NCBI RefSeq assembly: GCF_030013205.1
Contig: NZ_CP122648.1
Length of the DNA stretch: 64,000 bases
From: Escherichia coli
GTDB taxonomy: Bacteria; Pseudomonadota; Gammaproteobacteria; Enterobacterales; Enterobacteriaceae
Reading direction: 5' to 3' (one strand)
Shown here: in pieces, positions 57,701 through 60,700 of the stretch
Numbering within the stretch: position 1 is the first letter of the stretch
Layout of the letters: every line of letters starts with the position of its first letter
Position numbers: made by a program

Positions 57701-60700
57701 GCTAATCTCGGTCAGGCACGCACCTATATGGCGAAGACCCTGCTGGGCGCGGCGGCGCGAAAAGCAAAACTGGAAATCATCGACAATCCGAACGACGCTG
57801 AAATGGCGATTGTTCTCGGTGATTCCATCCCGAACGACAGCGCGCTGAACGGTAAAAATGTCTGGCTGGGCGATATTTCCCGGGCAGTTGCGCACCCTGA
57901 GCTGTTCCTGAGTGAAGCCAAAGGCCATGCGAAACCTTACACTGCGCCGGTCGCTGCGACAGCACCGGTTGCCGCCAGCGGTCCGAAACGCGTAGTTGCG
58001 GTGACTGCTTGCCCGACTGGCGTAGCACACACCTTTATGGCGGCTGAAGCCATTGAAACCGAAGCGAAAAAACGTGGCTGGTGGGTGAAAGTTGAAACCC
58101 GTGGTTCTGTTGGCGCGGGTAATGCAATCACACCCGAAGAAGTCGCAGCAGCGGATCTGGTGATTGTGGCGGCAGATATCGAAGTGGATCTGGCGAAATT
58201 TGCTGGTAAACCGATGTATCGTACCTCTACCGGTCTGGCGCTGAAGAAAACCGCGCAGGAACTGGATAAAGCGGTTGCTGAAGCAACGCCGTATGAACCG
58301 GCGGGCAAAACTCAAACAGCGACCACTGAAGGTAAGAAAGAGAGTGCAGGCGCTTACCGTCACTTGCTGACGGGCGTCTCTTACATGCTGCCGATGGTCG
58401 TTGCAGGTGGTCTGTGTATCGCGCTTTCTTTTGCTTTTGGTATCGAAGCGTTTAAAGAGCCGGGTACGTTGGCTGCGGCGCTGATGCAGATTGGTGGTGG
58501 TTCAGCCTTTGCGTTGATGGTGCCGGTACTGGCAGGTTATATTGCCTTTTCCATTGCCGATCGTCCGGGTCTCACGCCGGGTCTGATTGGCGGTATGCTG
58601 GCGGTCAGCACTGGTTCTGGCTTCATTGGCGGTATTATTGCGGGCTTCCTGGCTGGTTACATTGCGAAGTTAATCAGTACGCAATTGAAACTGCCACAGA
58701 GTATGGAGGCGCTGAAACCGATTCTGATCATTCCGCTAATTTCCAGTCTGGTGGTCGGTCTGGCGATGATCTACCTGATCGGTAAACCGGTTGCTGGCAT
58801 TCTCGAAGGGTTGACTCACTGGCTGCAGACCATGGGGACTGCGAATGCGGTTCTGCTGGGGGCGATCCTCGGAGGCATGATGTGTACTGACATGGGCGGT
58901 CCGGTAAACAAAGCAGCGTACGCGTTCGGTGTGGGTCTGCTGAGTACTCAAACCTATGGCCCGATGGCGGCGATTATGGCGGCAGGTATGGTGCCACCGC
59001 TGGCAATGGGTCTGGCAACAATGGTGGCGCGTCGCAAATTCGACAAGGCGCAGCAGGAAGGGGGCAAAGCTGCTCTGGTACTGGGACTGTGCTTTATTTC
59101 GGAAGGTGCAATTCCGTTTGCTGCCCGTGATCCGATGCGTGTGCTGCCGTGCTGTATCGTGGGTGGGGCGCTGACTGGCGCAATCTCAATGGCGATTGGT
59201 GCGAAACTGATGGCACCGCACGGTGGTCTGTTTGTTCTGCTGATCCCTGGCGCGATTACGCCGGTATTGGGTTACCTGGTAGCCATTATTGCCGGTACGC
59301 TGGTGGCGGGTCTGGCCTATGCCTTCCTGAAACGTCCGGAAGTGGACGCAGTAGCGAAAGCAGCGTAATAAAAGGTGTGTTACAGGGCAGAAATTTCCTG
59401 CCCTGTAACATTTGATGCGCGCAAAGAGAATGACCGGTTTGTGAATGTAATTTTATGAATTTAAATGGTTTTATCTTTTAGTAGAAACCTGAAACCTTCA
59501 TCAAACACTAGGTGATGCTGCCAACTTACTGATTTAGTGTATGATGGTGTTTTTGAGGTGCTCCAGTGGCTTCTGTTTCTATCAGCTGTCCCTCCTGTTC
59601 AGCTACTGACGGGGTGGTGCGTAACGGCAAAAGCACCGCCGGACATCAGCGCTATCTCTGCTCTCACTGCCGTAAAACATGGCAACTACAGTTCACTTAC
59701 GCCGCCTCTCAGCCCGGTACGCACCAGAAAATCATTGATATGGCCATGAATGGCGTCGGATGTCGCGCCAGTGCACGCATTATTGGCGTTGGCCTCAACA
59801 CGATTTTCCGCCACTTAAAAAACTCAGGCCGCAGTCGGTAACCTCGCGCATACAACCGGGCAGTGATGTGATTGTCTGCGCTGAAATGGACGAACAGTGG
59901 GGCTACGTCGGTGCTAAATCACGTCAGCGCTGGCTGTTTTACGCGTATGACAGGATGCGGAGGACGGTTGTGGCGCACGTCTTCGGTGAACGCACTCTGG
60001 CCACACTGGAGCGTCTTCTGAGCCTGCTGTCGGCCTTTGAGGTCGTGGTATGGATGACGGATGGCTGGCCGCTGTATGAATCACGCCTGAAGGGAAAGCT
60101 GCACGTTATCAGCAAGCGTTATACTCAGCGCATTGAGCGGCATAACCTGAATCTGAGACAACATCTGGCAAGGCTGGGACGGAAGTCACTGTCGTTCTCA
60201 AAATCGGTGGAGCTGCATGACAAGGTCATCGGGCATTATCTGAACATAAAACACTATCAGTAAGTTGGAGTCATTACCCAAACACTAAGGTTATTTCCTC
60301 AAGGGCAGATTAATTTCTGCCCTTTTTTATTGTTCCTGTTCTGTGCATCCCGTCACAAATTCCCCGTTTTTATAATTCAGGCATTTAATCGCGTTTTGTG
60401 AGCCTGCTCAAATCTGCCCATTTTGCCTCTCTGGCGGTAATTTACTTTACGTAAAACATGCATACTATGAGCACATGTTTAAATATGAACACATGTTTAA
60501 ACCGTCTTTGCAGTATCTATATTCTTGTGGATTGACAGGGTTGGTAATTTTTTACCAGAGGACGTGCTATGCGCGAAAAGGATTATGTCGTAATTATAGG
60601 TTCGGCGAATATTGATATCGCCGGATATTCACATGAATCATTAAATTATGCGGATTCAAATCCAGGTAAAATAAAATTTACGCCTGGTGGAGTCGGGCGA

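Follow-up and report, generated by a model that had tools for sequence, protein, structure and literature searches.

Upstream of psuK, the first gene of the pseudouridine-breakdown operon psuKGT of Escherichia coli (kinase, glycosidase, transporter), two near-identical 18-bp units lie side by side. We studied them in a stretch of 64,000 nucleotides (assembly GCF_030013205.1, contig NZ_CP122648.1; hereafter the window), in which they stand between an IS1 element and the gene. The two units are most likely a conserved pair of predicted repressor-binding sites, named O1 and O2, at the start of the operon. Judging from the conservation of the sites and from gene linkage, the protein that binds them is probably YeiI, a winged-helix protein fused to a PfkB-type kinase domain, which would repress psuKGT at O1/O2 and be released by pseudouridine. 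To place two operators on a catabolic promoter would be an ordinary arrangement.

A conserved pair of palindromes at the psuK promoter

Unit 1 (TATGAGCACATGTTTAAA) and unit 2 (TATGAACACATGTTTAAA) are adjacent, head to tail and the same at 17 of 18 bases, as expected of a tandem duplication. With Tandem Repeats Finder, the array (60466-60501) has a period of 18, 94% matches and 2.0 copies. The repeat is genuine and far above chance expectation: three two-copy tandem repeats with a period of 12-30 and at most one mismatch are found in the window, whereas 30 first-order Markov simulations of it gave 0.07 on average. The original prediction had recognized this duplication and its ACATGT motifs, which occur at 60473-60478 and 60491-60496. 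The coordinates it gave, 60467-60502, designate the same array but are one base out of phase, so that only 16 of 18 positions match there. The array begins 187 bp after the end of IS1 (60278) and ends 67 bp before the psuK ATG (60569). Two other tandem repeats of similar score are located in the window, one at 61506-61545 in the psuK/psuG overlap (period 21, unit ATTAAAAATTTCCCCGGAATT) and one at 30969-31008 (period 20, unit AAAACAGTACCCACCGTTTT).

Each unit is made of a 12-bp palindrome, GARCA-YR-TGYTY, with three bases on each flank. The O1 and O2 centres are therefore 18 bp apart, and the TAT with which unit 1 opens also closes the -10 hexamer. A protein-guided search for the psuK locus provided 14 sequences for comparison, from Escherichia, Citrobacter, Buttiauxella and Raoultella, including a Raoultella metagenome-assembled genome (MAG). 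In a pattern search, all 14 have a common layout: TTTAC[T/A], 16 bp, TA[C/T][C/T]AT, O1, 6 bp, O2. In every case, O1 has the form [G/A]A[G/A]CA-YR-TGTT[T/C] at the same place and O2 the form GAACA-YR-TG[T/C]T[T/C], constantly 6 bp past O1; in E. albertii, O2 is a perfect palindrome, GAACATATGTTC. In the upstream alignment, the conserved segments are islands within otherwise diverged DNA. Inverted-repeat half-sites that are kept while their flanks diverge, in 14/14 of these sequences and in 8/9 of the distant loci described below, are characteristic of operators. The earlier suggestion that the repeat is a regulator-binding site or part of the promoter is supported by this comparison: the two conserved palindromes begin directly after a conserved -10 hexamer. 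The comparison with other E. coli psuK upstream regions, which had been proposed as a check, showed the same two-site layout, and the segment from 60397 to the ATG is identical in the IS1-free strain K-12.

A unit-to-unit match of 17/18 is confined to the non-B2 Escherichia haplotype. The match falls to 10-13/18 in B2 E. coli, E. albertii, Citrobacter, Buttiauxella and Raoultella, which indicates that the two-site layout is old and that the near-identity reflects local homogenisation of O2 towards O1. All outgroups have two sites at the same spacing, in disagreement with a recent origin from a single copy. The term duplication thus applies to rare gains and losses of a unit within the non-B2 haplotype, but not to the ancient two-site layout itself. 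In E. coli, three units are observed in 8 genomes of varied sources and a single one in 3 genomes of one lineage, while two units are kept in ~4210 of the 4222 genomes of this haplotype. Strains 210205630 and GB089 (three units) and UC4224 (one unit) are examples of these natural operator-number variants, for which sequences were checked.

YeiI is linked to the operon and to the site pair

YeiI, a predicted regulator, is the only one consistently linked to the operon. The yeiI gene directly follows psuT in 8/8 loci of E. albertii, Citrobacter, Buttiauxella and Raoultella; in Citrobacter and Buttiauxella, this gene encodes a protein of 362-364 residues with a winged helix (Pfam HTH_24) and a PfkB domain, that is, YeiI. 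In E. coli, yeiL, rihB and nupX are found between psuT and yeiI, which lies 3.2 kb further. It is present in 5422 of 5426 complete E. coli genomes.

Nine more distant loci with YeiI homologues (42-53% identity) were examined, from Serratia, Yersinia, Xenorhabdus, Pasteurella, Chelonobacter, Shewanella, Aliivibrio, Ferrimonas and a Burkholderiaceae MAG. In all nine, a gene fusing a helix-turn-helix (HTH) domain to PfkB comes first and psuG immediately next, often together with a nucleoside transporter. In eight of them, a pair of RAAC-N4-GTTK palindromes is observed 0-27 bp upstream of the true start codon, the centres being 18-19 bp apart, as in Shewanella (first AAACAAAAGTTT, second AAACATATGTTT), Pasteurella (first AAACAAAAGTTG, second AAACAGGTGTTG) and Serratia (first AAACTCATGTTT, second AAACAAGTGTCC). 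Since these sites run up to the start codon, any promoter has to lie over or before them, a geometry that points to repression rather than activation. In Serratia and Yersinia, the annotated starts of the HTH-PfkB proteins (372 aa) lie inside operator O1 (cATGTTTAAA). Judging from the alignment, the true start is probably 28 bp downstream (MTSREKQIL...), in which case the database proteins are 9 residues too long.

An independent test used the pattern GARCAYRTGYTY, which had been set on the basis of the Escherichia clade only, prior to any look at the distant loci. With this pattern, the pair upstream of the HTH-PfkB gene is the top pair of the whole 6.6-15 kb locus in 6/9 cases; in Chelonobacter it ranks second, in the Burkholderiaceae MAG third. 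The pair scores near the null maximum. The estimated chance that the top pair of a 14-kb locus falls within ~60 bp of a given gene start is ~0.004 per locus.

YeiI retains the pseudouridine-contacting residues of PsuK

YeiI contains an HTH_24 domain (residues 1-48, E 1.2e-10) followed by PfkB, and the HTH domain is present in all listed YeiI homologues. Residues 55-359 align with residues 2-306 of PsuK, over its full length, with 40% identity, and the best match of YeiI in the PDB is PsuK itself (PDB 7vkp, E 3e-67). The HTH alone gave only weak, generic HTH matches in a PDB search. As compared to PsuK (YeiC, pseudouridine kinase), YeiI thus has an extra 54-residue winged-helix domain. Crystal structures of PsuK show a dimer formed via a beta-clasp, with pseudouridine contacted by Asn14, Asp16, Ser30', Tyr97, Asn112, Asn143 and Lys170, and with Asp256 as catalytic base (PMC9061257); a putative Mg2+ density was seen near Asp164, Asn187, Glu190 and Asp256 (PMC9247573). 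The pseudouridine contacts are invariant in YeiI and in every aligned HTH-PfkB protein, so that the ligand pocket of YeiI appears suited to pseudouridine.

Unlike this pocket, the catalytic motifs of YeiI are altered. In PfkB-family kinases, NxxE binds the Mg-phosphate, and GxGD provides the anion hole and the catalytic base. Like PsuK, the fused proteins encoded at the nine distant loci have both KPNxxE and GAGD. In contrast, YeiI of the clade that has a separate, HTH-less PsuK carries KPTxxE and GADD (N187 to T, G255 to D), and its kinase activity is probably weak or absent. NCBIfam scores agree with the split of roles proposed below: for Serratia, the PsuK model gives the kinase domain a higher score than the YeiI model gives the whole protein. 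The June 2026 release names YeiI only "sugar kinase". YeiI is described as uncharacterised in two structural papers (2022, 2025) and appears in one list of predicted transcription factors; no regulator of psuK was found in the literature searched.

A predicted weak promoter with CRP-like sites upstream

The operator pair is preceded by putative -35 and -10 hexamers (Table 1). Their 16-bp spacing, invariant in 14/14 sequences, is within the 16-18 bp range of sigma-70 promoters; the -10 hexamer is TATTAT in B2 E. coli and E. albertii, and TATCAT in Citrobacter FP75. This arrangement places the predicted transcription start near 60475 (or 60476). Two CRP-like sites are located further upstream. 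With one mismatch each, they are two of only three matches to TGTGA-N6-TCACA (at most one mismatch) in the 64 kb. The sequence TTGTGA...T..TCA.ATCT of the proximal site is kept in 13/13 sequences of the upstream alignment. Its centre would be at -70.5 or -71.5 for a start at 60475 or 60476, respectively, to be compared with the class I positions -61.5, -71.5, -82.5 and -92.5; -71.5 is a class I position of CRP. The psuKGT promoter is probably CRP-dependent, and the weak matches of its hexamers would be typical of an activator-dependent promoter.

Support for this promoter comes from an independent published observation. A single-nucleotide polymorphism (SNP) reported as "psuK/fruA intergenic (-126/+297) A->C" and labelled psuKp was found in three of four long-term stationary-phase cultures (PMC7858067). 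As the K-12 psuK/fruA intergenic region is 422 bp long and -126 is counted from the psuK ATG, the SNP maps to 60443, the third base of the -35 hexamer. Read on the psuK strand, T becomes G, which converts TTTACT to TTGACT and would improve the predicted hexamer.

Points against the proposed regulation, and alternative explanations

Several observations weigh against repression of psuKGT by YeiI at O1/O2. The score of the operator consensus does not reach significance by itself (13/16 for the E. coli pair versus a mean null maximum of 12.6 in 64 kb), so that the argument relies on position and conservation. Apart from the pair itself, the window has one exact match to the motif, at 44072 inside a coding sequence, and the number of matches is that expected by chance. 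No operator-like site was found near yeiI, nfo, rihB or nupX in E. coli. In the Xenorhabdus locus, no palindrome pair was found; this genome has two HTH-PfkB paralogues. The AAAC....GTTT consensus was derived after the distant loci had been seen, which leaves the GARCAYRTGYTY test as the only independent one. Regarding the promoter, each hexamer has 4/6 matches to consensus, which together is under the 9-of-12 threshold of our scan, and the start position is a predicted one; the Cappable-seq and Kim 2012 supplements have no entry near the expected coordinates. The SNP position is also listed among the differences of the parental strains from the reference (PMC7858067), so that the change may have pre-existed in the inoculum and its selected origin is uncertain. 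In addition, no paper connecting YeiI with psuK was found in the literature searched.

The palindromes could instead be operators for another protein, either a regulator of nucleoside or pyrimidine genes (CytR, DeoR or RutR, for example) or the CRP/FNR-type protein YeiL encoded nearby, YeiI being merely a second kinase. The near-universal presence of yeiI in E. coli genomes without an operator of its own would fit this possibility, as would the position of yeiL next to psuT in E. coli. However, the Citrobacter, Buttiauxella and E. albertii loci retain the sites but have no yeiL, and the geometry of O1 and O2 differs from the 5-N6-5 or 5-N4-5 sites bound by CRP/FNR proteins. Moreover, the site pair is found together with the HTH-PfkB gene in Pasteurellaceae, Vibrionaceae, Shewanellaceae, Ferrimonas and the Burkholderiaceae MAG, where the HTH-PfkB protein is the sole DNA-binding protein co-transcribed with psuG; some of the distant loci have divergent or neighbouring genes of LysR, GntR or ArsR type. 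Since the pair travels with this gene across families, we consider another regulator unlikely. In favour of another regulator, the sites may loosely resemble the RutR box (TTGACCA-NN-TGGTCAA), and the O1/O2 junction TGTT-N8-AACA the DeoR operator. These possible likenesses, and others to the FabR site and the NsrR half-site, were set aside; none explains the link to the HTH-PfkB genes. The same holds for a possible sigma-54-like TGGCA-N-TTGC in the Citrobacter version of the leader hairpin near the ribosome-binding site (Table 1), whose spacing is one base short in Escherichia.

If the functional promoter were instead located downstream (TTTAAA at 60496-60501, 16 bp, TATATT at 60518-60523), the units would lie at about -65 to -29 and be an activator site and part of the -35 region. 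This is the sole intergenic promoter-like match that reaches 9/12 in the scan, and the last T of TATATT is invariant. Nevertheless, its hexamers are not conserved outside Escherichia, Citrobacter having TCTAAT and GTTATT, without an A at position 2 of the -10; it is the upstream TTTAC / 16 bp / TAYYAT that is invariant in 14/14 sequences and that is hit by the -35-improving SNP. In the distant species, a promoter would not fit downstream of the pair, which reaches the start codon. We therefore regard a downstream promoter as quite improbable. A role at the RNA level is a slightly weaker contender. In this view, the inner half-sites (right half of O1, left half of O2) would pair in a hairpin at the mRNA 5' end, either stabilising or a target of the small RNA RprA. 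This hairpin is predicted with 11 pairs in the E. coli leader (z = -2.6) and with 6-7 in B2 E. coli, Citrobacter and Buttiauxella; psuK is also among the RprA targets common to TRIC-seq and RIL-seq (bioRxiv 10.1101/2025.09.11.675593). Yet two palindromes lying side by side necessarily give rise to such a hairpin, the hairpin leaves unexplained the conservation of the O1 left half, upstream of the predicted start, and of the O2 right half, and the leader z-scores are only -0.9 in Citrobacter and -0.8 in Buttiauxella. The energy of the RprA-psuK leader duplex is no better than with shuffled leaders, 37% of which equal it, and simple duplex prediction located no convincing RprA pairing site in the leader (60475-60568). 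Finally, the 17/18 match and the existence of one- and three-unit variants in E. coli could reflect a recent, neutral slippage duplication. The two sites at fixed spacing across genera and families, and the retention of exactly two units in almost all genomes of the haplotype, argue so strongly against it that we regard a functionless duplication as effectively excluded by conservation.

Proposed mechanism and relation to known systems

We favour control by YeiI, as follows. In the absence of pseudouridine, one YeiI dimer would bind each palindrome, so that O1 and O2 are both occupied and initiation or escape of RNA polymerase is blocked. Binding of pseudouridine, or of its 5'-phosphate, to the kinase-like domain would cause YeiI to leave the DNA. 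With cyclic AMP-CRP bound and YeiI released, the weak sigma-70 promoter would fire, giving the kinase, the glycosidase and the transporter. Release by the substrate combined with the need for CRP would turn the operon on when substrate is present and glucose absent.

A broader proposal, for which we see the case as evenly balanced, is that YeiI is the pseudouridine regulator of E. coli and descends from a bifunctional HTH-PsuK ancestor. In the ancestral state, represented from Serratia to Shewanella and in the Burkholderiaceae MAG, a single HTH-PsuK would phosphorylate pseudouridine and autoregulate its own operon. In the Escherichia/Citrobacter clade, the two jobs would have been split, PsuK becoming the enzyme and YeiI, with its altered catalytic motifs, the sensor-repressor.

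The closest analogy is with the ROK repressors NagC and Mlc, which combine a winged helix with a sensor of sugar-kinase fold, have the kinase paralogues NagK and Glk, and often act together with CRP. Similarly, YeiI is a winged helix fused to a kinase fold, its proposed sensor, with an active kinase paralogue in the genome, and it would control the catabolism of its ligand together with CRP. Unlike the ROK proteins, which belong to the ASKHA fold, the sensor of YeiI is PfkB/ribokinase-like, its ligand would be a C-nucleoside, and the operators differ in sequence and geometry. In addition, in many bacteria the kinase motifs of the HTH-PfkB protein are intact, and the operon has no other PsuK-like gene. 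The HTH-PsuK of Serratia, Pasteurella, Shewanella and other bacteria, encoded as the first gene behind the operator pair, would resemble the bifunctional enzyme-repressors BirA, NadR and PutA, in that one protein would catalyse the first step of the pathway and also regulate itself. In contrast, none of these three has a PfkB kinase domain, and in the E. coli clade the roles are apparently split between PsuK and YeiI. As in deo, cdd, udp and nupG, which are controlled by CytR/DeoR, CRP-like sites (60342 and 60397) lie upstream of a weak nucleoside-catabolic promoter that would have a dedicated repressor. Unlike CytR, which binds between tandem CRP dimers, the psuK repressor would act at palindromes located over and downstream of the predicted start, and CRP binding itself is predicted.

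This gives YeiI a concrete and cheaply testable proposed function, and pseudouridine catabolism in E. coli its first regulatory model. If the model is true, a class derived from PfkB kinases joins the theme of enzymes turned regulators, and the locus offers a clean case of one bifunctional gene splitting into an enzyme and a sensor. A pseudouridine-responsive repressor/operator pair could also be useful as a biosensor in strains engineered to produce pseudouridine for mRNA manufacture.

IS1, leader hairpin and haplotypes of the locus

The gene assignments around the repeat (fruA, IS1, psuK, psuG, psuT) agree with the annotation of strain K_EC180, which is 100% identical to the window over the sampled stretches (343 bp upstream, the psuK coding sequence and the IS1 junction).

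Table 1 Features of the fruA-psuKGT region (window coordinates)
Feature	Position	Strand	Basis and details
fruA	57677-59368
9-bp target-site duplication CAAACACTA	59502..59510 (left), 60279-60287 (right)	.	Read in the sequence
IS1 element, 768 bp	59511..60278	+	Terminal repeats read; IS1 family transposase in K_EC180
Terminator-like hairpin, then TTTTTTATT	60301..60324	+	9-pair stem, 5 G-C pairs, T run (terminator scan)
Distal CRP-like site TGTGCATCCCGTCACA	60342..60357	.	Centre ~-125.5; TGT and TC.CA invariant across genera
Proximal CRP-like site TGTGAGCCTGCTCAAA	60397..60412	.	Centre 60404.5, ~-70.5 or -71.5
Predicted -35 hexamer TTTACT	60441..60446	+	TTTAC invariant 14/14, 16 bp from -10
Predicted -10 hexamer TACTAT	60463..60468	+	TAYYAT conserved 14/14
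Tandem array, two 18-bp units	60466-60483 and 60484-60501	.	Tandem Repeats Finder and repeat search
Predicted operator O1, palindrome GAGCA-CA-TGTTT	60469..60480	.	~-6 to +6 of predicted start
Predicted operator O2, palindrome GAACA-CA-TGTTT	60487..60498	.	~+13 to +24 of predicted start
Hairpin TGGTAA-TTTT-TTACCA	60542..60557	+	Abuts ribosome-binding site AGAGGA, 60557-60562
psuKGT operon	60569..63780	+	psuK 60569-61510, psuG 61498-62436, psuT 62530-63780; open reading frames; K_EC180 and K-12 annotation

It had also been proposed that transposition of IS1 may have changed the context of the repeat. This idea is not supported. IS1 lies 187 bp away, behind a terminator-like hairpin and upstream of all conserved psuK control elements; K-12 is identical without it; and the exact IS1 junction occurs in only 7 of the 5426 genomes, namely K_EC180 and six porcine enterotoxigenic E. 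coli strains. IS1 thus plays no part in the repeat or the control region. IS1-free strains have a single CAAACACT[C/A] where the window has the target duplication, and the 343-bp stretch between IS1 and psuK aligns end to end in 4197 E. coli genomes. The hairpin at 60301-60324 is the probable terminator of the fru operon, standing between IS1 and the psuK control region. A further hairpin follows the fruA stop (59378-59410), and IS1 was inserted between the two; fru transcripts would consequently now run into IS1. Strain PigCaeca_1 has a second, independent insertion, of IS1B, downstream of the T-run hairpin (target duplication TGTGCATCC). It falls inside the region of the distal CRP-like site; both IS1-bearing strains are pig-derived.

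In the leader, the hairpin next to the ribosome-binding site (TGGYAA-N4/5-TTRCCA) is found in 12/12 sequences and is predicted in all four RNA folds. Its fourth pair covaries, being T:A in 3 sequences, T:G in 1 and C:G in 8; the T:G intermediate suggests that the structure is formed in RNA. The pairs were counted by pattern, RNAalifold having missed the hairpin because the alignment had shifted its arms.

About 1200 E. coli genomes at first seemed to lack psuK, which was rejected: these genomes have a diverged, B2-type haplotype, at which the megablast alignment stops at the fruA 3' end, and psuK is present in both B2-type genomes examined among them. The psuK-psuG-psuT-yeiL-rihB-yeiI region of E. 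coli exists as two deeply diverged haplotypes. Their yeiI alleles are ~81% identical, the diverged one being found in 2060 genomes. At the place where K_EC180 has nupX, the two B2-type genomes examined show only a short annotated remnant. The B2-type promoter region resembles that of E. albertii. Overall, the divergence suggests that the psuK-yeiI region was replaced by recombination.

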